From Candidatus Hermodarchaeota archaeon (lineage in GTDB: Archaea > Asgardarchaeota > Hermodarchaeia > Hermodarchaeales > Hermodarchaeaceae): 64,000 nucleotides of DNA. The notes beneath the pieces were generated by a model, which saw only the letters and a program-made list of their open reading frames with translations, searched no databases and had not been told where the DNA came from. The position numbers and the translations under genes are program-made. How positions within the stretch are numbered: the first letter of the stretch is position 1; each line of letters opens with the position of its first letter. The stretch spans positions 67,886 to 131,885 of the forward strand of contig JAEOTB010000037.1 in the NCBI GenBank assembly GCA_016840065.1, read 5' to 3'. Shown here one piece after another: positions 1 through 47,090 of the stretch.

Positions 1-609
1 CAGGAGGACGGAAAAGCAGTCGCCATTCCTCCCACTCTAGTGATTACTGCCGTAGGAATTATTCCAGATATCAGGAATGCCGTGACCATGGATGTCAAGG
101 AAGCAGGGAATCCACTTTACATTGTGGGTGAAACTTTTGATGAATTAGGTGGATCCCATTACTACGCAGTTCGTGGGTTTGTAGGTAATAACGTCCCTAC
201 TGTGAGGTTCAAGACTGCCAAGACGAACATGGACTCGTTGATTCTAGCGATAGATGCTGGGCTAGTTAAAGCATGTCATGATTGTTCTGAAGGTGGTATA
301 GGTATAGTAGCAGCGGAGATGGCGTTTGCAGGCGATTTAGGGATTCACCTAGAGCTGGGATCTGTTCCTTCAAAAATGACCCAGAATGATAAGATTCTCT
401 TTTCTGAATCCAACAGTAGATTCATTGTTGAGATTGCTGAAAGCCGCGCTACTGAATTTGAGGAACTGATGCATGGTGCAGTTTGCGTGAAAATCGGTAA
501 AGTCATAGATGCACAAAAGCTGGTAATAGATGGAGTTGATGGTGAGGTTATTGTTGAGGAGCCGCTCAACGCATTGAAAGAGGACTGGCAATCGACCTTT
601 AGGTGGTGA
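1..609 (+). CDS. purL: Phosphoribosylformylglycinamidine synthase subunit PurL, C-terminal part (5'-truncated)
   Basis: Frame open from base 1 (AIPPTLVITAVG). Motifs ACHDCSEGG and LFSESNSRF. Precedes purQ. Confidence 0.93.
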   Translation, partial: QEDGKAVAIPPTLVITAVGIIPDIRNAVTMDVKEAGNPLYIVGETFDELGGSHYYAVRGFVGNNVPTVRFKTAKTNMDSLILAIDAGLVKACHDCSEGGIGIVAAEMAFAGDLGIHLELGSVPSKMTQNDKILFSESNSRFIVEIAESRATEFEELMHGAVCVKIGKVIDAQKLVIDGVDGEVIVEEPLNALKEDWQSTFRW

Positions 610-6482: not shown

Positions 6483-7838
6483 CTACTTCTTTACTGTTAT
6501 CTTCTGTACTACTCCAACAGCCACTGTGCGACCACTATCACGAATCGCAAACCGACCCAGCTGCTTCATATCGGCAAACCGCTCTAACACAATTGGCTGC
6601 ACTGGACTGAACTTGACGATAGCTGATTCACCTTGTTTGATGAAGTCTGGCTTCTCCTCCACCGTCTCGCCAGTACGAGGATCAATCTTGCTGATAAGCT
6701 CAGTGAAAGTCGTTGCCATCTGGAGTGTGTGAGCGTGCATAACTGGTGTGTACCCAGCGGCTATGGCTCGTGGGTGATGGATTACGATTATTTGTCCAAC
6801 GAAATCTGTGATAACCTTGGGTGGGTCGCTGACATGACCCATGACATCACCACGTTGAACCTCGCCTTTTCCAATGCCACGAACATTGAAACCGATGTTG
6901 TCGCCCGGCTCAGCCTTCTGCATTTTCTCATGGTGCATCTCGATTGACTTGACTTCGCCCGTATGCCCAGAGGGCATGAAGATTACTTTATCGCCAACTT
7001 TCAAAACACCAGTTTCAACTCTACCAACGGGAACAGAGCCTACGCCAGTAATGGTGTAGCAGTCCTGGATTGGTACTCGCAATGGTGCTTTGAGTGGTTT
7101 CTCTGGCTGTACGAACTTGTCAAGAGCCTGGAGCAAGGTGGGACCTTTATACCAGGGCATGTTCTCACTAGCCTTATCCAGCCCATCTCCTGTCCAACCG
7201 CTGGTTGGGATGAAATCGACTTTGCTTGGATCGAATTGAGCACCCTGGAGCACTGAAGTGACTTCTGCCTTGATTTCCTCGTAGCGTTCTTGGCTCCAAG
7301 GAGGCGTAGAGTCGTCCATCTTGTTCACAGCAACAGCGACCTGCTCGATACCAAGGGTTCGGGCAAGGAATGCGTGCTCACGGGTCTGCCCGCCCGCACT
7401 GATTCCAGCTTCAAACTCACCCTTACGTGATGAAACGACAAGAATCGCCGCATCAGCCTGGCTGGCACCCGTAATCATGTGCAAGAATTAAGGAGCGTAC
7501 CCCTCAATTATTCTTGATGAAGTCCGCGTGCCCAGGAGCGTCAATCAGCGTGAAGTAGTGTTTTTGTGTCTCGAATTTTCGAAAAGCTAGATCGATTGTT
7601 AGCCCACGTTCTCGCTCTTCCTTCAAGCGATCCATTACTTACCCCTTCATATCGTGTGATATGAAGTGTAGGCGAACTTGAACGAGGCGTCTTTCGTTTC
7701 TGATGCTAGCTTTTCTAATTTGAGCATTTCTTGTTTCGTTAGCGCACCCGTGACATATACGAGGTGGCCCATTAGCGTTGATTTACCATGATCAACGTGA
7801 CCAATGATGATCAAGTTGATGTGTGGTTTAGTAGCCAT
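6483..7838 (-). CDS. tuf: Translation elongation factor EF-1alpha, interrupted by two BHB introns; join(7838..7668, 7638..7511, 7479..6483), 431 aa
   Basis: GHVDHGKST in exon 1. Exon 2 reads [42 protein letters not shown]. Exon 3 reads [10 protein letters not shown]...NKMD. Exon lengths 171+128+997=1296 nt form one intact frame. Confidence 0.95.
7480..7510 (-). other. BHB intron 2 in tuf mRNA (31 nt)
   Basis: UCAU-CAAG-AA|U-AAUUGAGGGG(UACG)CUCCUUAAUU-CUUG-CA|C-AUGA, a full hBHBh' motif. Removal gives DFIKN MITG. Confidence 0.92.
7639..7667 (-). other. BHB intron 1 in tuf mRNA (29 nt)
   Basis: GCCU-AC|A-CUUCAUAUC(ACAC)GAUAUGAAG-GGGU-AA|G. Removal gives FKFAY|VMDRLKEE. Confidence 0.9.
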
Positions 7839-8003: not shown

Positions 8004-11000
8004 TCAAAGTGGTAGGAGGGCTTGGAAGGGGGATAACATAGGTGCTACTGTGGCTACTAGCACGCCAAGTATTTGTCCAAGAAGATTACGGACGATTTGA
8101 CCCACTACTTGATTGAGAAGAACCTTAACCACTCCAGCAAGAGTGAGATTACAAACCATCTTCCCCACAGGGAGTAGAACGCTATACCAGAGCCAAACCA
8201 CACTATCACGAACAATTGGTGATAACACACTAAGTATCCATGTAGCTATGAGATGAGCAAAATCTGCTAGCGTAAAGAAAGGAAAGCCCAACGCTTGCAG
8301 ACTTGCCCCGAAGCCGGTGATAACTAAGCTTAGTAACCCCGTCGCCGATAAACTCGTAGCAGTAATACCCAAACTAAACACTGACCCGCTGATGTATTGG
8401 AGAACTATAGCGAAAATACTGAATACAACGCCAATAAGCCAACCATATTGTGTAAGTGTAGCGAGGAAGGTGTTGATAGTGAATGTTAAGAATATGAAAA
8501 GCGCTGTACCGATTGCGCTGAGAATCAATGGGAGCAAGCTGCTGAATAAACTAGTAAGACCACTCCCAGTTGAAGCCGAAGAAGTGGAGGCTAAACCCCC
8601 ACCAAGAGCCCGACTAGTTAAACTAACAACGGCAAAATTCTGTATCAAAACGAGAAGCGGCGCTAATGAAGTGTATCGAGCATCCATTGTATTAATGCCA
8701 AGACTTGTGAGGATACTCTGAATGGCAGTAGTGATAGTGATTGCTACTAGAAGGGCCTTCCAGCGGCTGGGATTAAGTAACTGCCGAACACGCTGTTTGA
8801 TTGTGAAAAACAGGTTCTTTGCATAATCCTTCAGCCTGTCTGTTAGCTGGTCGCGAGCGCGACCTGTAAGCATCTGTATGTAACTAGTTTCAAGAATAAT
8901 TTGGGAAGGAAACTTTTGGCGCACAAACCGATCGAAAACATAGAATCTGCTGTAATATCCCCCTTTGTAGGTGTTTCCCCCACGAGAGCCGTATTGCCAG
9001 CTATTCCCTAATGTTCTATCTAGATTCTCGAAGATTGCGGGCCATCCACCAGGGTTTCCCCATCGACCTGTTTGATCTTTACCATTGTAGATGAAGGAAA
9101 GTTTTCCCCATTCCTTGTATGTAGACCATATTTTCTCATCAATGGATAGACTTCTCACGGTTTTTCCTCTATCAATTTCCTGATCAGATTGTAGAGGAAC
9201 AGGGCAGATACGACCCACCCCAAGTACTGCACAGAAATAGATGAGGGTGTTCAAATCATCCCGAGTTACATCATCTAATCCATAACGCCATGTTCGATCA
9301 CGAGCAGAATTCTTTCTTGCCGTCCAAAACGACCACGTTAATCTATAGAGTTTATTCTCTCCAAATCCACGAGTTGTACGACGGAGCCCGTAATACTGAT
9401 TCAATAGTCCTACATGTCGGTATTTGACATGAGTGGGCTCCAGTTGCATCGTCACCCCAACTGGTCCAGCAGGCGTGTTAACCAATTGAGTACCAGTTAA
9501 AGCCAGAGTTGTCAGGCCCATTAGCGGGTCAATATGCCCTTCACGACACTCGAATTCTACGAGCCGAAGCCCACCTAACTGTGGTTCGTCTGGTTTGGGT
9601 GGCATTTCATCATTCTGTTGAGGTTTCAGAATGAACAAGTTCCATTTAGTTTTCATTACCACATCAAGACGTTGTTTCATCGAAAGTAGTACGCCTTGAA
9701 TGAATGGATTTAGTTCTTGAAGTGTCGGAGGGGCTGCGATGAATAATTGATTCTGATATTTCCTCTTTACCTCTTTGACGGCTTCGGTCTGGAAAAGAGG
9801 ACCTTCGTCACAAAGAATACCTCTAGGAACCCCAGCAATGCAGCTGTAAAATTCAGCAAAGAGTAGGTATTGTCCTCTAATAGTTTTAGTCGAGAAGCCC
9901 TCAATATCTCCTGGATAATGTGTGTGTATCTGGGCATTGTTTGGATTTAGTAAATCCCAAAGACACCAGAAACTCTTTCTCTTTGCTGAAACTCCAGTAA
10001 ATCCAGTTCGAGTGGGAATAAGAAATGTGGGTAGTTCAATCCACCTATTACTCCATGTAGGCGCTTGGCTTGGTTTGTATCGAGCAGTAATCGTGGGATT
10101 AAGTGGAAGAATGAGAATAGCACCTTGCTGATTCTTGATATGGTTGATAAGGCTAGTATCTTGCTGGGCTAGTTCTGCAGTATCAATGTTTGAACGGTCT
10201 GGTTTGAGTATGAGAGCATTCTTGATATGGGCGACAACTGCATCTGAGTGGACTGGAAGACCATGATTCCTTCGGGCTTCTTGGAAATCAGCGTTGTCAC
10301 TTATTCGATATATCACTTGGAAAGTGGAGTAGGTTTTCCCTTTGTGATGTGTGTAGGTAATGAAGTTGTCCCGGACAATTCCAAGGTTTTCTTCTTCAAA
10401 ATAAACACGTTTTGTACCTTGCCCTGGAGGCGCTAACGCCATACGCTCTTCGTAAACCGCTGATGCTTGCTGCCAGTAAAGCCCCTTCGCATACCTTCCA
10501 TCTCCTATGCCCGCCCAATGCCGAAAGATAAGAACTTCTGTTGTTAACTTAAGTGAGCCAATCACAGGAATAGGTGTGCTATTCAGAATCTCCTTTTCCA
10601 ACCCCCTAACCTGCGAGTCAATCATCACACCCTCCTCAACAAGTGTAGCCATTGCTGGTAAAATTTCTTGGATTTGGGGAATAAGGATACCAATCTCCTT
10701 AACCGTAGTCCAGTCTAATCCCTTCATCTTGTCCAGTGTTTTCCTGATAGTTCCTTGAATTTGTTCTTTCATTATGCCTATACGGCCACACTTCAACGCT
10801 TGATCCAAGATATTGACATACGGGAAAGTCTCTAGTGTTGTTGGGTAAATGGCTTCAGCACCATAGTCGGGAGTTGTGAAAGTACCTGAAGCTCCAGGTG
10901 GGGGAGGTGAGGTCTCATCCTCACCAAAAAGGAAAGCTTGCAGAAAAAACCCAATTACTGGCAACTCTAACAGCTTGCTTATCAGAAATTCAAGAGGTAC

Positions 11001-14000
11001 GAATATGATGTTAGTTAGTGCATTTCGAACCGCTGTAATGATGCCGAATATTGCCTGTAATAGCACCATTCCTAATGTCATAAGTATCGTCTTCCCAATT
11101 TCTATTAAAACGCTCAAACACTGTGTAATGAAATCCCACGCAGGTCCTAGAATTGCCTTGGGGTCGAAAAAGCTCAATTGCCCGTCTGTCACCTTCTTGA
11201 TAGCATACTGGGTAGCTAACTCGCCTACAACCTCTGGTAGACTCAAGGGTTTCCCTGAATGCCTGTTCAGAGCCTCCGCTACCCCCTTAATCACATACAT
11301 AGGCTCTTCAATATAACCAGCCTCAAAAAGCAGAATAGCCTGCACACTTCTGTCATATACGACTTGCCAGCCGAATCTGTCTTCTAACCCTGCATTCAGT
11401 TTCAACAGTCGCAGTAACCCGGTCAGCTTGTAAGATGCTTCTTCCAGATTTCGTATCTTAGCATAGTGAATTAGTTCATCAAAGAGACGCTGAGCCTCCA
11501 GCCCCACCTGATTCCACGTCTCTGAACCCGCATCCTTGTACATCGACTCCGCAGTAGATAAGAGGGAATCGCGAGCTTCTTGGATGCGTTCCTGCAAAGC
11601 AACCTCGTCCCTCAGCCTCGCAAGCTTTGCCAAGGTTTCCGCTACTTTTACCTCCACTTGTTTCTGATGGATTACGGCCAGTATCGTGTTCTCTAGGTAC
11701 TTGTCTAGAGACTCATAGCCTAAATCCCATCCCCGCACCACCACCTCTCCATAAAAGAGGAAGGTGGGCACAAACCAGCCCATACTCAAAGACCCCTCAA
11801 AGACCTGAGTGGGAGCAAGATAGGGCTTGACACGGGACCAGTCCGCCTCCCCTACCTGATACTCTGGTGTGGTTGCAAAGGGACTCGCCTCGACTGATAG
11901 CAGCTGCGTTGACTGGAGGGCAGACTGCAAGAACTCGTCTTCCACCAGTGGATTTGAGTCAAAACACCATCGCTGGAGGTCACCCTCACCCAAATAGTAC
12001 AGATCATCGCCTAACTGTTGTTGAAGGGCTTGAAGCCGTAACATCTCTGCCAGCGATAGACGAGCCGCATCTACGGTGTGTTTTGTCGGGTCAACAGCGG
12101 TACGATAGCCCACTAAGAGGAAGCTACCTAATACTGTAGTGAGGGGTTCTACTTGGAAGGTTGATAGGTTCAAGGCTTGGAAGAATTGTAGGAGGTCTTG
12201 GGCATAGGCATCCAAGTTGGTTTGAGCGTGGTGGTGTAATTGCTCATGGAAGGTCAGAAAAGAAATATCTCCAGGGAGGCTAGCTCCAAGCCCTGCGAAC
12301 ATAAAAAGCAGAAGTTTGGGATCAACAAACGCAAGACCAGCTAGGCAGATAACAATCCAGGGTCCATTCATTAGGATGTAACTACCAATCAGTTGCTTAT
12401 CGTCAAGAGAAGCAAAGACATTGAGAATTGTGGTCTTGGCCTCGGCTTCTCCTGCCTGTAGGAGTGAAGTTCCCACAAACTCAGCCCGTAGGGTCACCAC
12501 ACCCACAAGACTTTGGGACACCAGCCAATCTAGTGTAGCCTCTCCTTCGGCGTTGGTGTAGGCTTCGCCAAGAAGTGATGTGCCGTTTATCCCCTCAAGG
12601 AAGAAGCGGATAAGCTGATGTGCCACTGGCTGTCCAGTGCTAGTGGTTACGATTGCAGTTATTTGGGTTGTCTGTTGAGTTGTAAGATCCGCTGGAACCG
12701 ACAATGTAAGTTGGGTTGTCGCCACCACACAGAACTCTATTATCTCACTGCTTGCACCAGCCGGACTCTTTGCGATGACAGTCGCCGTGTAGCTGTGCAT
12801 CCCCTGTAAGGGACCGATGATACCCGATGTCATCCACACACTACCATAACAGGAGAGAGCAAAGCTTTCTGGTACACTGTTGCCATCGGTGTCAAGCTGG
12901 ACGGTGAGTGTGAGGAGGTCGTCAGGGTATGTGGCGTTCAGAGTGACCTGTACACTCAAGGTGTCTGTATCACAAATTGTCGCATTACCATAGAGGGTAG
13001 ATAGCTTTGCAGTCAAGATGGTGGGCGGATGGTTGCAGAGGGTGACACTCTGCTCTGCTTGGCAAGTTCGTAATGCCAAGTCATATCCAATGAGGGTGAG
13101 GATGTGGTCACCATCTGGTAACGTGCTAGTATCGAGGGTAAGGGTGTGGCTACCTGATGAGTGGAGGCGGAATAGCACTACCTCGCCATCTAATAGTAAG
13201 ATTGCTTCTCTCATGTTCGCATCGGCGAGAAAGAGGGTGATTTCTACAATGCCTGTGAGGATGGTTCCTGCGGTGGGGGTGTCAATGCGAACCACTGGGT
13301 TCTCCAAGTCCACAGTGAAGGCTTCGGTGTATTCTGCGACATTACCCGCAATGTCAGTGGCTTTGATGAGAACTGTGTGTGGAGCCGCTGTAACTGCTAT
13401 TGTAAAGGTGGTCTCGTTGGTGTTCTCTGCAACACCAGAGAATATGCCATCGATGAAGAGTTCGATTGTCTCGCAATGCCTGTCTGTTACAAAGACCACC
13501 ACGTCAAGCGTGGTGTTTTCGGTGAACCCTGCCTCCGTTACTGGCAGAAAGACCTCCAAGATGGGTGCTGTGCTATCTATGAGAAAAGTGACACTCCGAG
13601 CAAGAGCATTTCCTGCGCGGTCCATTGCCTGAACCAGTATTGTGTGGGAACCATCAGTGAGATTGGTTAAGGTATATTGGCGGTAACTACCATCGAGTTC
13701 AACAGCTAGGGTTCCATCGAGGTAAACAGTAAAGGTTGCAATCCCTGCGGTGGTGTCGCTGGCACTCCACTGAATACGCGGATTTACACTAGAAGTGTGA
13801 GAGTCTTCCAAGGGGGCTGTGATGGCTAGAGTCGGGGAAGTTGCGTCTGTGGTAAAGATGTTTGAGGTGCTTTGGTGATTGCCAGCCAAATCAATGGCTT
13901 CAACGGTCAAAGTGTGTATGCTCTCGGTCAAGTTGGAAAGCAGGAACATCGTGTCTACGGTGTTCGCCAATAAAACGCCGTCAAGGTAGACCTGATAATA

Positions 14001-16394
14001 GGCAATTCCCGTATTGTCAGTTCCCTCCCAAATAGCTGACAAACCAGTAGCGCTATAGTACTCACCCTCCAATGGTGATGCTATTACGACATCGGGTAAT
14101 GTGTTATCTACAACCACAATAAGGCTGTGAGTGGCTATCCAACCTACACCATCGGAGGCTATAGCAGCCAGGGTGTGGTTACCATCACACCACTCTTGAG
14201 TATCCCAAGGAAACAGAAAGGGAGGACAGGTCGTTGTGTTGTAGAGGAGAACACCATCAACGGACAGGACAACCCACAACACACCAGAGGGATTGATACC
14301 AAAATCATCTGCTGATACCTCCACGACAACGGTTTGGCTGAGAATTGTTCCCTCAGAGAGAAAATCCACCGTTACAATGGGTGGTGTGGCGTCAACATGA
14401 AGCGTTCGTAACAAGCTAGCCCAGTTCCCCACCCTATCTACTGCTGTGGTATTCACGGTGTATGTTCCTTCTATTGTGGGTACTGTCCATTCTTGGGTTT
14501 GTGAGCCTGTATCAGTTGTTGAGATCCTGTGATGGTAGTTATTGGGACCTGTGATGGTCAGGTTGGAAGCCGCCAACCCTGCTGGGGGATTGCCCTCATC
14601 GGTCTGCTGCCACACAAGACTACACAGTTTTCCCGCAGCAACATGAGCAGCATTGGCTGGGGCAGAGAAGGAAAGGAGGGGTGTCGTGCAATCAATCAGA
14701 TAGATACCGTGAATTGTTGTTGCACCCACTTCACCAGTTTGGGGGTTTACCGCAAATGCCATCACATCGTACCAGCCCTCCAATACACCAGCAACAACCT
14801 CTGTCAAGTAGCCATCACCACTCCCATTTACAGGAAGATAGAGATTACCACTTGGTTGTTCATAGACTTGGGTGCCATCACAGATAATTCGATATTTTGC
14901 AAAGGTGGGACCTGCTGCATAGGAGACAGTCACATTGAACTGATCGCCCACAGCCGCATAGGTTTGAGTCGAATCTGCTGTGACACTCCACCCCCCATGT
15001 GTTGCCAACCTGTTAACCGAGTTTGCGGAAAAAGTCCAAACACCTTCTGCAGGATTATTCACGAATATACTATACGACGCTTCACTGAGCGAAACAGAGC
15101 CTGATGGGTTGTTGGGGCTAGATTGGTAATTACTCCAGCCACAGGGGAGGCTGAGCGAGAAGCTCCCCGGTTGCCACTGGGCACCCGTAACTTGACTACT
15201 AAAGGAAATGCCCCAATCAGCAAATGAAGCACCACTGATAACGGAAAAGGTGGTGTCGGCGGTACGCTCCCAGCTAGCCTCCATTGATTCGTGGTGATTG
15301 AACACCGTCACAGGCCAATCCGAGGCACCGCTGTCTGAGCGAGTGAAATAATATGAAGTACCAGTACCACTGGCGCAAGTATCTAAAACACTCACATGAC
15401 CCTTTCCCCAGTCCACTCCATTTGACACCGCATACTGCTTGGTGGGATCCGCTTCACTTCTAAGAGCTAGGTCCAGGTCACTGGATCGAAGCTTGTGGAG
15501 AGCCCACAGGTTAGCATAGTCAAACCGCACCGCACTCCAATGACTACTGAACAGGGTTGAAGCAGTGGTCACCCAGACATTTAGACGAAGCTCAATGGTT
15601 GCCGCATGATCCGGTAGGGCGCTGTCAAAATGCAGGTTAACCTCATCGGTTACCCAGGTGTCCAGCGGCGAAGCCAAATCCATATCATAGGGGGTGGCTG
15701 CTAGTACGCTATCGACGTAGATTTGGGCGCATATTCGCACCCAGTTTTTGTAGCGAAAGCCAAGGGTTAGTTGGGTGCGGTGGAGGGGGAAGAGTCCGCG
15801 TGTGTCGCTGAACCAGCCCGGCGGCACCAAGAAGCTTTGGCTGAAGTAGCCCTGACAGGTACCCTGGTAGATAATCCAGCCGATGAGGAGGGGTGATTCG
15901 ATTTCTCCGTAGGATATTCCTTCTTCACTGGCAAAGGAGATTTGGGCGATTCCATCGGTGTGGTTGGTCCAAGGAGTGCCGTGGTCGAAGTGGTAGTCGC
16001 TGAGCCATTCGCTGCGCTGCCCCCATAAATCGCCCACATAGGAGGTGAAGAAATAGTCGAAGTAGGTTCCCTCCGTGGGCGGATCCACTTGGGGACCTAT
16101 CACTTCCAGCGACGAGGCTTCGGTCATGTAGCGGTTTGTGGTGGGTGTTGTACAACCTGCTGTAATAGTGCCAGAAAGGGGTGCAGAAGACCCTGAGAAA
16201 ATATCCACTCCACTTGTTGGAGGTATCAGTTGTTGTGGGTTTGGATTGGCGATTGGTAGAGTTTGCTGATGGTGAGAAGCTGACTCCCTTAGAGGAGGAG
16301 AGTCTGTAGTGAGGTGGGGGGATTGGGGGAAGGCGCTGATGCTGCCTAGAAAGAGAAGGAGGAGCACGCAGGCGATGGAACCATTCACCTTCAT
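8004..16394 (-). CDS. Giant (2796 aa) exported/membrane protein with tandem bacterial Ig-like (Big) repeats and a multi-TM C-terminus
   Basis: N-terminal signal peptide. Repeats of the form D-x-T-x-P...G-x-HT...A-x-D-x-A-G-N. Internal hydrophobic helices and a long hydrophobic C-terminus. Confidence 0.8.
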   Translation of the reverse strand: MKVNGSIACVLLLLFLGSISAFPQSPHLTTDSPPLRESASHHQQTLPIANPNPQQLIPPTSGVDIFSGSSAPLSGTITAGCTTPTTNRYMTEASSLEVIGPQVDPPTEGTYFDYFFTSYVGDLWGQRSEWLSDYHFDHGTPWTNHTDGIAQISFASEEGISYGEIESPLLIGWIIYQGTCQGYFSQSFLVPPGWFSDTRGLFPLHRTQLTLGFRYKNWVRICAQIYVDSVLAATPYDMDLASPLDTWVTDEVNLHFDSALPDHAATIELRLNVWVTTASTLFSSHWSAVRFDYANLWALHKLRSSDLDLALRSEADPTKQYAVSNGVDWGKGHVSVLDTCASGTGTSYYFTRSDSGASDWPVTVFNHHESMEASWERTADTTFSVISGASFADWGISFSSQVTGAQWQPGSFSLSLPCGWSNYQSSPNNPSGSVSLSEASYSIFVNNPAEGVWTFSANSVNRLATHGGWSVTADSTQTYAAVGDQFNVTVSYAAGPTFAKYRIICDGTQVYEQPSGNLYLPVNGSGDGYLTEVVAGVLEGWYDVMAFAVNPQTGEVGATTIHGIYLIDCTTPLLSFSAPANAAHVAAGKLCSLVWQQTDEGNPPAGLAASNLTITGPNNYHHRISTTDTGSQTQEWTVPTIEGTYTVNTTAVDRVGNWASLLRTLHVDATPPIVTVDFLSEGTILSQTVVVEVSADDFGINPSGVLWVVLSVDGVLLYNTTTCPPFLFPWDTQEWCDGNHTLAAIASDGVGWIATHSLIVVVDNTLPDVVIASPLEGEYYSATGLSAIWEGTDNTGIAYYQVYLDGVLLANTVDTMFLLSNLTESIHTLTVEAIDLAGNHQSTSNIFTTDATSPTLAITAPLEDSHTSSVNPRIQWSASDTTAGIATFTVYLDGTLAVELDGSYRQYTLTNLTDGSHTILVQAMDRAGNALARSVTFLIDSTAPILEVFLPVTEAGFTENTTLDVVVFVTDRHCETIELFIDGIFSGVAENTNETTFTIAVTAAPHTVLIKATDIAGNVAEYTEAFTVDLENPVVRIDTPTAGTILTGIVEITLFLADANMREAILLLDGEVVLFRLHSSGSHTLTLDTSTLPDGDHILTLIGYDLALRTCQAEQSVTLCNHPPTILTAKLSTLYGNATICDTDTLSVQVTLNATYPDDLLTLTVQLDTDGNSVPESFALSCYGSVWMTSGIIGPLQGMHSYTATVIAKSPAGASSEIIEFCVVATTQLTLSVPADLTTQQTTQITAIVTTSTGQPVAHQLIRFFLEGINGTSLLGEAYTNAEGEATLDWLVSQSLVGVVTLRAEFVGTSLLQAGEAEAKTTILNVFASLDDKQLIGSYILMNGPWIVICLAGLAFVDPKLLLFMFAGLGASLPGDISFLTFHEQLHHHAQTNLDAYAQDLLQFFQALNLSTFQVEPLTTVLGSFLLVGYRTAVDPTKHTVDAARLSLAEMLRLQALQQQLGDDLYYLGEGDLQRWCFDSNPLVEDEFLQSALQSTQLLSVEASPFATTPEYQVGEADWSRVKPYLAPTQVFEGSLSMGWFVPTFLFYGEVVVRGWDLGYESLDKYLENTILAVIHQKQVEVKVAETLAKLARLRDEVALQERIQEARDSLLSTAESMYKDAGSETWNQVGLEAQRLFDELIHYAKIRNLEEASYKLTGLLRLLKLNAGLEDRFGWQVVYDRSVQAILLFEAGYIEEPMYVIKGVAEALNRHSGKPLSLPEVVGELATQYAIKKVTDGQLSFFDPKAILGPAWDFITQCLSVLIEIGKTILMTLGMVLLQAIFGIITAVRNALTNIIFVPLEFLISKLLELPVIGFFLQAFLFGEDETSPPPPGASGTFTTPDYGAEAIYPTTLETFPYVNILDQALKCGRIGIMKEQIQGTIRKTLDKMKGLDWTTVKEIGILIPQIQEILPAMATLVEEGVMIDSQVRGLEKEILNSTPIPVIGSLKLTTEVLIFRHWAGIGDGRYAKGLYWQQASAVYEERMALAPPGQGTKRVYFEEENLGIVRDNFITYTHHKGKTYSTFQVIYRISDNADFQEARRNHGLPVHSDAVVAHIKNALILKPDRSNIDTAELAQQDTSLINHIKNQQGAILILPLNPTITARYKPSQAPTWSNRWIELPTFLIPTRTGFTGVSAKRKSFWCLWDLLNPNNAQIHTHYPGDIEGFSTKTIRGQYLLFAEFYSCIAGVPRGILCDEGPLFQTEAVKEVKRKYQNQLFIAAPPTLQELNPFIQGVLLSMKQRLDVVMKTKWNLFILKPQQNDEMPPKPDEPQLGGLRLVEFECREGHIDPLMGLTTLALTGTQLVNTPAGPVGVTMQLEPTHVKYRHVGLLNQYYGLRRTTRGFGENKLYRLTWSFWTARKNSARDRTWRYGLDDVTRDDLNTLIYFCAVLGVGRICPVPLQSDQEIDRGKTVRSLSIDEKIWSTYKEWGKLSFIYNGKDQTGRWGNPGGWPAIFENLDRTLGNSWQYGSRGGNTYKGGYYSRFYVFDRFVRQKFPSQIILETSYIQMLTGRARDQLTDRLKDYAKNLFFTIKQRVRQLLNPSRWKALLVAITITTAIQSILTSLGINTMDARYTSLAPLLVLIQNFAVVSLTSRALGGGLASTSSASTGSGLTSLFSSLLPLILSAIGTALFIFLTFTINTFLATLTQYGWLIGVVFSIFAIVLQYISGSVFSLGITATSLSATGLLSLVITGFGASLQALGFPFFTLADFAHLIATWILSVLSPIVRDSVVWLWYSVLLPVGKMVCNLTLAGVVKVLLNQVVGQIVRNLLGQILGVLVATVAPMLSPFQALLPL

Positions 16395-31439: not shown

Positions 31440-31599
31440 TGGTCCCGCCTCCCGGATTTGAACCAGGTTATGGGTCCTTGAAATGCTCCAAGGACAAACC
31501 ATCTGGTTACTGCCTTGACTGACACCACGTCATAACCCGGGGGGCTCAGGGTGCGAGTAATCTACAGCCAGACGCTCTACCGGACTAAGCTAAGGCGGG
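31440..31599 (-). tRNA. tRNA-Tyr(GUA) with two introns: 54 nt at 37/38 (31508-31561) and 29 nt at 48/49 (31468-31496)
   Basis: CCCGCCU/AGGCGGG acceptor. BHB helices CUGU:GCAG and AUGG:CCAU. Spliced length 77 nt. Confidence 0.92.
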
Positions 31600-32223: not shown

Positions 32224-32829
32224 TTGGTAGATGAGCATCCACTGGAAGAAGTTTCTCTAGATGAAGATAAGGAAGAACCGCGCCCTCAGCTCCCAGAGGA
32301 ACCTATAACAGCGAAGCTGTCCAGAGGACGTGTCGTAGTTAAGGGGGAGATGGCCCGTGTTCTATACGACGCTGGGCACTTTGGCACTTTGAAAAGTGAA
32401 TTAGAACTCGTCTTAGAGGCTGAGGAAGCCCTCTTACTTATACGACGAAAGCGAATTCAGGTCTTTGACAGAAAAGGAACTGAACTAGATTTCTCGGTGT
32501 TGCTTCAGATATTATCAGAACGCCACCCTAGATTATGGACGCAGTATCTTGTATACAGTGACCTTAGGAGCAGAGGTTATGTTGTCCGAACAGGCTATGG
32601 AAAAGGACTCTGGTTTCGCGTTTATCCACGGGGCGCCAAACTAAACGAGGCAACAGCGAAATATTTTGTGTGCGCCATATCAGAGGGTTCACCACTTAAA
32701 GTAGCAGAACTTGAGAAGCTTAGCAGTCTAGCGTTAAGGAACCGGAAAAAGCTGATGCTAGCTGTCTTGGATAGACAAGGTGAAACAACCTACTATCTAG
32801 TTTCACACGCCGACATCACGGCAGACTAG
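32224..32829 (+). CDS. endA: tRNA-intron (BHB) splicing endonuclease subunit, probably the structural subunit
   Basis: EEALLL, YLVYSDLRSRGYVVRTG, FRVY, RKKLMLAVLD. No catalytic His after FRVY. Confidence 0.85.
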   Translation: MVDEHPLEEVSLDEDKEEPRPQLPEEPITAKLSRGRVVVKGEMARVLYDAGHFGTLKSELELVLEAEEALLLIRRKRIQVFDRKGTELDFSVLLQILSERHPRLWTQYLVYSDLRSRGYVVRTGYGKGLWFRVYPRGAKLNEATAKYFVCAISEGSPLKVAELEKLSSLALRNRKKLMLAVLDRQGETTYYLVSHADITAD

Positions 32830-34329: not shown

Positions 34330-34435
34330 TGGAGCCTCGGGCGAGGATTGAACTCACGACCAGCAGCTTACAAGGTTCAACGTTACCGGTTTGGTTTCCG
34401 GAAACTCTGTCGCTCTACCACTGAGCTACCGAGGC
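34330..34435 (-). tRNA. tRNA-Thr(UGU) with 31-nt intron in the anticodon stem (34376-34406, 30/31)
   Basis: GCCUCGG acceptor, CU-UGU-AA loop. BHB CGAC:GUUG with bulges AG|A and AA|C. Confidence 0.9.
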
Positions 34436-36601: not shown

Positions 36602-36644
36602 CAGTGGAAGGCTTTAAGTGTAGGCAATAGATTTCTTTCATTTA

Positions 36645-39092: not shown

Positions 39093-39512
39093 ATGCCAAC
39101 CACACGCAATGCATCGTCAGTAATGCAAAAATTACTAGAAGAGGGTTTTAGGAATGGTGTTGCGTTACTGGTGGAATTATCGAAGAATGGAGTAGTGGTT
39201 ATTGTGGAGGGTCAAAAGGATGTGATATCCTTAAGGCATTTGGGACTAACAGGACCAATTATTCCTCTTGCAGGGCATAGTGTGCTCACACTAGCGGAAA
39301 TGCTTGCAGGGAATGCTCAAGTTTTGATACTTTTCGACTTTGATACTCGGGGCGAGCAACTTACTAGATTATTAATTTCGCAATTACACGGAACAGGGAC
39401 GAGAGTACATCATGATTTTCGTAGGAAACTAAAGAAAGCGTTCAGTTGGCAATCCAGAGTAATCGAAGGATTAAGACCCCTAAATAGGGATACAAACACC
39501 ACAAAGTTTTAA
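39093..39512 (+). CDS. Small stand-alone TOPRIM-domain protein
   Basis: IVEGQKD, LFDFDTRGE. Confidence 0.85.
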   Translation: MPTTRNASSVMQKLLEEGFRNGVALLVELSKNGVVVIVEGQKDVISLRHLGLTGPIIPLAGHSVLTLAEMLAGNAQVLILFDFDTRGEQLTRLLISQLHGTGTRVHHDFRRKLKKAFSWQSRVIEGLRPLNRDTNTTKF

Positions 39513-39666
39513 TCACCCTCCACTCCAGTCTCATCTTGTATCATGCTTACATACCGTCAAGCCCAGTCTTGACGTCTTAACTTGGTATATCATTCACAGA
39601 TATGATTGTGGTGAAGGAATAACACACCACTCATAACACATAACCAATCAAAATCATCCCTAGGTG

Positions 39667-40969
39667 ATGAACTTGGGTTCAAGTACGCCTAGTAGTGCTA
39701 CTACAAAGTATGAAATCCGATGTAAAATAGAAATTAGCGGAGTTGTTGAGACTCCAGATGTCGTTGGAGCGCTCTTTGGTCAAACAGAGGGCCTACACTT
39801 CATGATACGCGTTTCATGAAGGGGTAATCGGTGAAGATTTAGATCTGAGAGAACTGCAGCAGTCTGGACGAATAGGTCGAATAAAGGTTGAACTACACTC
39901 AGAGGGAGGAAAATCCCGCGGAATAATAGTAATCCCTTGCAGCCTTGACCGTACTGAAACAGCCATTCTTGCAGCGGCATTGGAGACAGTTGACAGAGTT
40001 GGACCGTGTTCAGCGAAAATCACTCTGGAGAAGGTTGAAGATGTCCGTGACTCTAAACGCAAACAGATTATTGATCGAGCTGTGGCTTTACTGCGTGTAT
40101 GGGAGGGTGAAACCTCTCCAGGGGCACAGGAGATAACCGATAAAGTTACACGTGAAACGAAGACAGCAGAAATCACTCGATTTAATGGGCTTCCTGCGGG
40201 TCCTTCTGTTCAAGAATCAGATACAATAATCGTCGTAGAAGGGAGGGCTGATGTCCTCGCATTGCTCCGAGCAGGAATAAAGAACGTTGTTGCAGTTGAG
40301 GGTACCAGTATTCCTCCTTCCATCATAAAACTAGCAAAAACAAAAACGATTATTGCCTTCCTTGACGGCGATAGGGGTGGCGACTTGATTCTTAAAGAAT
40401 TGTCTCAGGTTACAGATATCAAGTTTGTAGCGCGAGCGCCAGCGGGACGTGAGGTTGAAGAACTTACAACAAAGGAGATAACCAAAGCTCTTAGAAATAA
40501 AGTGCCTGCATCCCAGGTTGTTGGACGGATAAAACGAGGGGTAAGCGAGTCGGCAACAACAAGAGCCTCTTCAACTCCAAAACGCAGAACTCGCCGAACA
40601 ACACAGAAAACAACTGCACCGCGGCGAACTGCAACCCGTTCTAAGACCACGACCAGAAGTGTTACACGACCAAAAAGTGGAAGCATCCCTAAACCGATTC
40701 GAGAATTAGCTGAGAAAATACAAGAGACAATGACTGCAATGATACTCGATAAGGATAAGAAGGTCTTGAAAGAAGTTCATGTCGCAGAACTGGCTTCAAT
40801 GCTGCAAGAAATAGAAAAAGCGAAAACAATCATTCTCGATGGTGTAATCACTCAGCGACTGGTAGACATCGCTGGTGAACGTGGAGTGACCCTAATCATA
40901 GGCGCGAGAACCGGTAAAATTGTAAAGAGACCCGTGAAAATCAAGATACACACATTCAACGATTTATGA
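39667..40969 (+). CDS. dnaG: Archaeal DnaG (primase / exosome-associated), interrupted by one BHB intron; join(39667..39796, 39828..40969), 423 aa
   Basis: Exon 1 reads TTKYEI...[19 protein letters not shown]. Exon 2 reads [19 protein letters not shown]...VVEGRAD...DGDRGG. Exon lengths 130+1142=1272 nt are in frame. Start could be TTG 39673. Confidence 0.94.
39797..39827 (+). other. BHB intron in dnaG mRNA (31 nt)
   Basis: GCCU-AC|A-CUUCAUGA(UACGCGUU)UCAUGAAG-GGGU-AA|U. Removal restores GQTEGLLG. Confidence 0.9.
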
Positions 40970-46744: not shown

Positions 46745-47090
46745 GACAGTGAGCCTAGGCGGGGGGCTAGAAGCCCCGCAGCACGACTACGGGCTGGCCA
46801 AGGTTCCCCTCTACCGCAAATACTCTATAGCGGGCTGAATGCCGGCGTGAGGCTTCCTAACCCGGTGTACGACTCGCAGTTCGTTGGCAGTGAAGATCCG
46901 CCTCGGAGGATCGCAGGTGGTGGTAGGCTTTTCGTAGGAAGGGCTGAATCACCTCTAGCGTGTGAACCCAGCGAGGCCCTGGCGGGAGCAGCGTAAGCGC
47001 GCACTGTTGGTGCTTCCGAGATTCCCGGGTCGGAGACCTGTCTGTGGGTACGGCGGCGGTGAAGGTTGTCAATTGTCGGGGTTCACTGTC
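46745..47090 (+). ncRNA. ffs: SRP (7S) RNA containing a 31-nt BHB intron in the Alu domain
   Basis: Terminal helix GACAGUGAGCC/GGUUCACUGUC, Alu start CUAGGCGGGGGG, helix 8 AGG-CCC(UGGC)GGG-AGCAG. Length 346 nt, or 315 nt after intron removal. Confidence 0.9.
46771..46801 (+). other. BHB intron in SRP RNA (31 nt)
   Basis: GGCU-AG|A-AGCCC..(CACGA)..GGGCU-GGCC-AA|G. Removal restores the helix-3 loop UAGGG, complementary to helix-4 loop CUCUA. Confidence 0.8.

Follow-up and report, generated by a model that had tools for sequence, protein, structure and literature searches.

The window (the whole 64,000-nucleotide stretch of DNA that was analysed) lies on contig C10 in the MAG (2.59 Mb, 84% complete) of a Candidatus Hermodarchaeota archaeon and carries dnaG in an interrupted form. 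In the program-made list of open reading frames (ORFs) the gene is present only from a TTG at 39980 (329 aa), as the initial annotation had pointed out. A 51-codon ORF in another frame (39664-39819) encodes the N-terminal part of DnaG, followed by the tail HFMIRVS and a TGA (39817-39819). Between the two parts (39796/39828) lies an insert of 31 nt, and it contains this in-frame TGA. The stop codon belongs to the 3' arm of a hairpin with 8 bp (39798-39805 paired to 39814-39821), in agreement with the earlier description of a conserved N-terminus closed by a TGA within a hairpin. The gene that immediately precedes dnaG, in the same orientation, encodes a stand-alone Toprim protein (39093-39512, 139 aa, PRK04017-type 'hypothetical protein'), and this pairing of a small Toprim protein with dnaG is seen at the loci of several relatives too. 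The features of the locus and of the related loci are collected in Table 1.

Table 1. Features of the interrupted dnaG gene, the tuf mini-introns and the candidate splicing enzymes (window positions unless a contig is named).
Feature	Position	Strand	Description
dnaG exon 1	39667-39796	+	43 N-terminal codons and first base of a Leu codon; NF003108 profile positions 1-30 (41.7 bits)
Central helix H(a), exon strand	39791-39794	+	GCCU; pairs with 39822-39825
Bulge 1	39795-39797	+	AC/A; predicted 5' cut 39796/39797; unpaired in local fold, invariant in family
Predicted BHB intron of dnaG	39797-39827	+	31 nt
Intron hairpin h'	39798-39821	+	8 bp, 8-nt loop
Central helix H(b), intron strand	39822-39825	+	GGGU; pairs with GCCU 39791-39794
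Bulge 2	39826-39828	+	AA/U; predicted 3' cut 39827/39828
dnaG exon 2	39828-40969	+	Remaining two bases of the Leu codon, then 379 codons and a stop; Toprim; NF003108 profile positions 31-419 (451.5 bits, cut-off 300)
tuf intron 1	7639-7667	-	29 nt; belongs with the dnaG intron in one sequence family; behind GCCUAC (7668-7673)
tuf intron 2	7480-7510	-	Perfect CAAG/CUUG helix, UACG-capped stem
EndA paralogue, non-catalytic (structural, beta-like) half	32224-32829	+	N-half of NF006795; weak match to beta-subunit models
EndA catalytic partner	L100:1222-1779 (contig C85)		Matches C-terminal catalytic half of NF006795 (dimeric enzyme)
RtcB	G000:C10:52982-54292 (outside the window)		566 bits

When 39797-39827 is taken out, GGCCTAC is joined to TCGGTGAAG. 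The joined DnaG then counts 423 aa from ATG 39667 or 424 aa from GTG 39664; the start codon of exon 1 is uncertain, with TTG 39673 as a third candidate. The translation thereby confirms the claim that removal of this segment restores the conserved motif and a 423-aa protein. The NCBIfam NF003108 matches of the two pieces abut exactly, with zero profile positions missing or duplicated. Together, the pieces give a full-length match to the archaeal DnaG family (NF003108/PRK04031), including the Toprim domain that is detected by Pfam in exon 2 (Toprim_4, 1.2e-14). An alignment of the joined protein to intact Asgard DnaG, a check that had been suggested in the initial annotation, runs without a gap across the junction at 53% identity. 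In a spliced mRNA the junction would read GGCCUAC/UCGGUGAAG, and the corresponding junction peptide would contain GQTEGLLGEDLDLR and likewise GLLGEDL.

The presence of two ORFs in the list might be explained by a split gene, either with a separate N-terminal peptide (ending at TGA 39819) and a C-terminal DnaG (starting at TTG 39980), or with an N-terminus that is dispensable. The stretch between the two, however, is strongly conserved: pN ranges from 0 to 0.07 over the first 50 codons of exon 2, compared to a pS of 0.33-0.84. As the first 51 codons after the insert (39828-39979) contain no ATG, GTG or TTG, their translation must run on from exon 1. Moreover, the two pieces adjoin without gap or overlap on a single profile, and the unspliced tail HFMIRVS is not conserved, because the sequence and length of the insert vary. 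A split gene is consequently regarded as exceedingly unlikely.

The insert and the last six bases of exon 1 (GCCU and AC) form a motif of the bulge-helix-bulge (BHB) type. The central helix consists of exactly 4 bp and is paired for 100% in 16 distinct sequences of the family, where the changes are all one-sided (GU to GC, CG to UG). It is flanked by two 3-nt bulges on opposite strands. According to the BHB rule, as stated for cbf5 (PMC2738675), the cuts are made between the second and third bulge residues. When the cuts are placed behind the second base in either bulge, the reading frame and the conserved Leu are recovered exactly, and these are the same cut sites that had been named in the initial annotation. 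The intron helix h' comprises 8 bp, one fewer than the 9 bp of the sister genus. Only the exon-exon helix h of the strict hBHBh' motif is reduced, to the single pair G39790-C39829 or to a 2-bp alternative in the local fold. With an outer helix of 1-2 bp, the motif is to be classified as a relaxed BHB and not as a strict hBHBh', a form that also occurs in cbf5 and in the non-canonical introns of Crenarchaeota.

The local minimum-energy fold of 39786-39833 shows the central helix, bulge 1 and h'. When 91 nt are folded, the global energy minimum contains an exon hairpin in competition with the central helix (-25.3 kcal/mol, versus -18.9 kcal/mol with the BHB enforced). No Rfam family was found to overlap the dnaG intron.

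For the splicing of such a motif, the genome contains both a candidate endonuclease and a ligase. Two EndA paralogues and an RtcB are encoded (Table 1), and the paralogue on contig C85 keeps the Tyr/His/Lys-type motifs (by eye). By gene content, the host thus possesses the EndA type for relaxed motifs together with the RtcB ligase. In PMC5829648, the (alpha-beta)2 and epsilon2 types of EndA are described as cutting non-canonical introns. It might be argued that the intron is real but is removed by another nuclease and ligase, or by self-cleavage, since the outer helix h is nearly absent and the RNA is therefore no strict EndA substrate. The geometry is nevertheless exactly that of BHB substrates, a two-subunit EndA is the type reported to accept relaxed motifs (PMC5829648), and no ribozyme-like family is found in the 31 nt by Rfam. 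Removal by such another route is held to be highly improbable.

The tRNA genes of this genome are frequently interrupted as well. When one intron was allowed, ARAGORN found 28 tRNAs, 16 of them interrupted, compared to 15 tRNAs when no intron was allowed. Within the window, two tRNA matches on the minus strand (31443-31599 and 34333-34435) measure 157 and 103 nt against the 71 positions of a tRNA, and this excess length suggests one or more introns. A match to the archaeal SRP RNA (46747-47088) covers 342 nt versus a model of 317 positions, and may hold a short insert.

The interruption of dnaG is shared by the whole family (f1). Eighteen relatives were searched, and all 17 with a detected dnaG contain an insert at the identical site (same profile position). 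Its length is 28 nt for the sister genus and 29 nt for two congeners, versus 31 nt in the present genome; these lengths are never multiples of three and result in both +1 and +2 frame shifts. The MAGs in question derive from several independent projects. In the DNA runs of the source sediment, an independent contig of a sister strain was found with the 29-nt version of the intron; other contigs from the four DNA runs carry an intron-less dnaG and belong to other organisms. In one DNA run, no contig of the exact strain spanning 39806-39907 was found. Among the sequencing runs that match 39500-40500, none is of RNA.

The structure is conserved together with the site. In an alignment of 18 sequences, 96.9% of the cells are paired, versus 38.8-54.5% when the partner columns are slid by 1-3 positions. 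Compensatory double changes occur in three pairs of h', within a covariation sample of 16 related sequences that are not independent. The last 31 codons of exon 1 show a pooled pS of 0.42, a pN of 0.034 and a dN/dS of 0.056 (18 genomes), values that come from non-independent pairs and from synonymous sites near saturation between the genera. Between genera, 13-18 of approximately 23 synonymous sites differ in exon 1, and 6-7 of 70 non-synonymous ones. Exon 1 of dnaG is under purifying selection, and the family has retained its split dnaG through long divergence.

These data bear directly on the possibility that dnaG has been inactivated by 31 nt of junk, or that the insertion arose as an assembly artefact. 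The ORF is indeed interrupted, by a frameshift and a TGA, and the genome is a MAG that is 84% complete. Yet 17 further genomes, obtained in several independent projects, and the sister-strain contig have dnaG interrupted at this very site, and the stem shows compensatory changes. A pseudogene is further contradicted by the dN/dS of 0.06 in exon 1 and by the absence of a second dnaG copy in a search of the whole genome. The probability of a pseudogene or an assembly error is considered close to nil. The initial annotation had named an intact dnaG elsewhere, or decay at the locus, as findings that would speak against an intron; the genome-wide search yielded one dnaG, and the low dN/dS is the opposite of decay.

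Inserts in dnaG also occur in other Asgard lineages. Three other Asgard families possess unrelated inserts of 31-40 nt located 10 nt upstream of the Hermodarchaeota site, after the Gln codon (FGQ/TEG). At yet another site, 31 nt upstream and within DI/VGA, a single locus (L098, G209:C297) contains a 30-nt BHB intron. In genus g10 (family f9) the dnaG intron is polymorphic: in 53 genomes with a dnaG match, the gene is intact in 36 and interrupted in 16. The introns of this genus (L084-L097) are BHB introns of 37-40 nt following the Gln codon of FGQTEG, and the intact genes read GQTEGLLG with zero extra bases. The N-terminus of dnaG looks like an insertion hot spot.

The BHB geometry was also scanned for blindly (all four central pairs, 3-nt bulges, h' of at least 3 bp). 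A strict candidate that restores FGQTEGLL was found in 32 of the 36 interrupted loci, spread over three sites and four Asgard families. The remaining four have three of the four central pairs or an offset hairpin. A single rule that gives the right junction at three sites, for unrelated introns, favours a BHB mechanism and argues against ribosomal recoding. In the latter case, the RNA would stay unspliced and the ribosome would shift frame in a programmed manner, or would hop across the hairpin in a translational bypass like that of phage T4 gene 60. Two reading frames separated by a stable hairpin that contains a stop codon would indeed fit such an event. However, inserts of 28, 29 and 31 nt would demand differently directed shifts in sister species, and the take-off codon (CUA) does not match the landing codon (GUA). 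Recoding could do without the 4-bp helix and the 3-nt bulges that are conserved here, and the same geometry recurs in unrelated inserts at the two other sites. Recoding is therefore judged very unlikely.

Taken together, it is very likely that 39797-39827 is a BHB intron of the dnaG pre-mRNA that is excised by EndA, after which the exons are joined by RtcB. The claim of a 31-nt intron in dnaG, made initially from the sequence of one genome, is in this way supported by comparative evidence. The observations comprise the anatomy of the motif, its conservation and covariation, selection acting on either exon, a dnaG that occurs once in the genome, and genes for the enzymes. For the RNA itself, the following course is proposed. 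The two-subunit EndA would cut after the second base of each bulge, and RtcB would then ligate the exons to CUA C/UC GGU. This ligation would remake the Leu codon within FGQTEGLLGE, a conserved motif, and with it the DnaG of 423 aa. The dnaG of this Hermodarchaeota archaeon is very probably not broken, but its mRNA would need splicing.

A second protein gene in the window is interrupted in a similar manner. The tuf gene (EF-1alpha, 6483-7838, minus strand) is divided over three ORFs and split by two BHB mini-introns. The ends of tuf intron 1 are those of the dnaG intron (ACUUCAU...AUGAAGGGGUAA), and both are preceded by the exon hexamer GCCUAC, although it provides Ala-Tyr codons in tuf and Gly-Leu in dnaG. 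Compared to the dnaG introns of three genomes of the sister genus, tuf intron 1 is identical in 27 of 29 bases; compared to the dnaG intron of its own genome, in 26 of 31. The gene adjoins a 2796-aa ORF (8004-16394, minus strand) whose N-terminus is signal-like and which includes Ig-like, repetitive stretches.

The tuf introns are present in this genome only, out of 18 family genomes with a tuf match. In 14 relatives tuf is whole on its contig and open for 387-473 codons. Two congeners (G001 and G003) show a precise empty site for tuf intron 1 (...ttcgcctac/GTAATGGA...), and the site of tuf intron 2 is empty in the five relatives examined. When the 19 family genomes were searched with a pattern for this intron type, only dnaG was found, plus the one tuf copy in the present genome; the reversed control pattern gave no match in the same 19 genomes. 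A pattern match at 36615-36625 (GCCTACACTTA) was rejected as a member of the intron family. A third and weaker match of the intron ends (ACUUU...GAAGGGGCUG, 40 nt, helix GCCC/GGGC) lies on another contig of the same genome (G000:C36, ~320-392, minus strand).

A near-identical copy in tuf, restricted to this genome and positioned behind the same GCCUAC, seems to indicate a small family of mobile introns. The empty tuf sites of the sister species suggest that the intron was gained recently by copying (transposition). It can be proposed tentatively, with a likelihood a little short of even, that the dnaG intron belongs to a family of mobile mini-introns that are targeted through pairing between the GGGU of the intron and a GCCU(AC) in the exon, and that a dnaG-type RNA was recently copied into the EF-1alpha gene. 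As to direction and mechanism, the intron may have travelled from dnaG to tuf, perhaps through reverse splicing with subsequent reverse transcription or recombination. If true, EndA/RtcB-dependent introns would be spreading among essential protein genes in the closest archaeal relatives of the eukaryotes, and mRNA splicing would be an obligatory, expanding part of gene expression.

The whole genome was also scanned for further mRNA introns, based on a strict BHB geometry and an ORF-joining test, with a mirror geometry as control. The raw output amounts to noise (1236 matches for the real geometry versus 1207 for the mirror). After a codon-usage filter, 14 candidates versus 2 for the mirror are left at an h' of at least 7 bp. 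Five of the scan candidates were checked with Pfam, and two proved to be ordinary gene junctions: one between a 5-FTHF cyclo-ligase and an AIR carboxylase, the other between an unknown protein and PolC DP2 (which starts at profile position 1). In view of the noise and of these ordinary junctions, no count of further mRNA introns is drawn from the scan.

In the searchable literature, cbf5 of the Crenarchaeota is the only archaeal coding sequence with confirmed splicing by the tRNA enzymes (PMC2738675). In a full-text literature search, no paper was found that connects BHB introns to dnaG or to mRNAs of Asgard archaea. The comparative data support dnaG as a probable new gene, in a new phylum, for EndA-type introns in archaeal mRNA. 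What is at stake is a conserved, single-copy Asgard gene that cannot be fully translated unless 31 bases are removed. Gene callers shorten such genes, as is apparent from dnaG, called from 39980, and from tuf, called in three pieces. Protein-coding introns would have been gained and kept, apparently by gene-to-gene copying, in the archaeal lineage nearest to the eukaryotes. As a pair, dnaG and tuf would offer a clean snapshot of one EndA-type intron copied between two protein genes, and the splice junctions are precise enough for direct testing.

In eukaryotes, the HAC1/XBP1 mRNA is spliced by Ire1 together with a tRNA ligase or RtcB, as part of a regulated stress response. The splicing proposed for dnaG would resemble this system in its protein endonuclease, its stem-loop sites, its RtcB-type ligase and its short, frame-changing intron. 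The nuclease Ire1 and the motif it recognizes are different, however, and dnaG shows no sign of regulation.

The BHB introns of archaeal tRNAs correspond to the dnaG intron in motif, size range (about 14-60 nt) and enzymes. The tRNA genes of Asgard archaea are known to be intron-rich (PMC11291895; bioRxiv 10.64898/2026.10.13.758758). For the tRNA introns of Thermoproteales, which have a non-canonical BHB, transposition has been proposed (Fujishima 2010, reviewed in PMC4090602), and the GGGU-GCCU target pairing of tuf and dnaG is in line with that proposal. In both systems look-alike introns are encountered at different loci, and the need for a BHB limits the insertion sites. The host of the dnaG intron, on the other hand, is an mRNA.

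The closest known parallel is the BHB intron in the pre-mRNA of cbf5 (a pseudouridine synthase) in the Crenarchaeota, in particular the Desulfurococcales and Sulfolobales (Watanabe 2002; Yokobori 2009, PMC2738675), where relaxed BHBs are cut by a hetero-oligomeric EndA (PMC2738675). The introns of cbf5 and dnaG are alike in being short and located inside the coding sequence, within a highly conserved motif. They share a relaxed ('unconventional') BHB with cuts between the second and third residues, a hetero-oligomeric EndA, and a presence or absence that is lineage-specific. In contrast, dnaG is a different gene in a different phylum (Asgard, Hermodarchaeota), and the splicing of its intron is predicted from DNA, whereas splicing has been confirmed for cbf5. 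Unlike cbf5, dnaG has such introns at three neighbouring sites in different lineages, and the present intron recurs as a recent, near-identical copy in tuf, a second protein gene.
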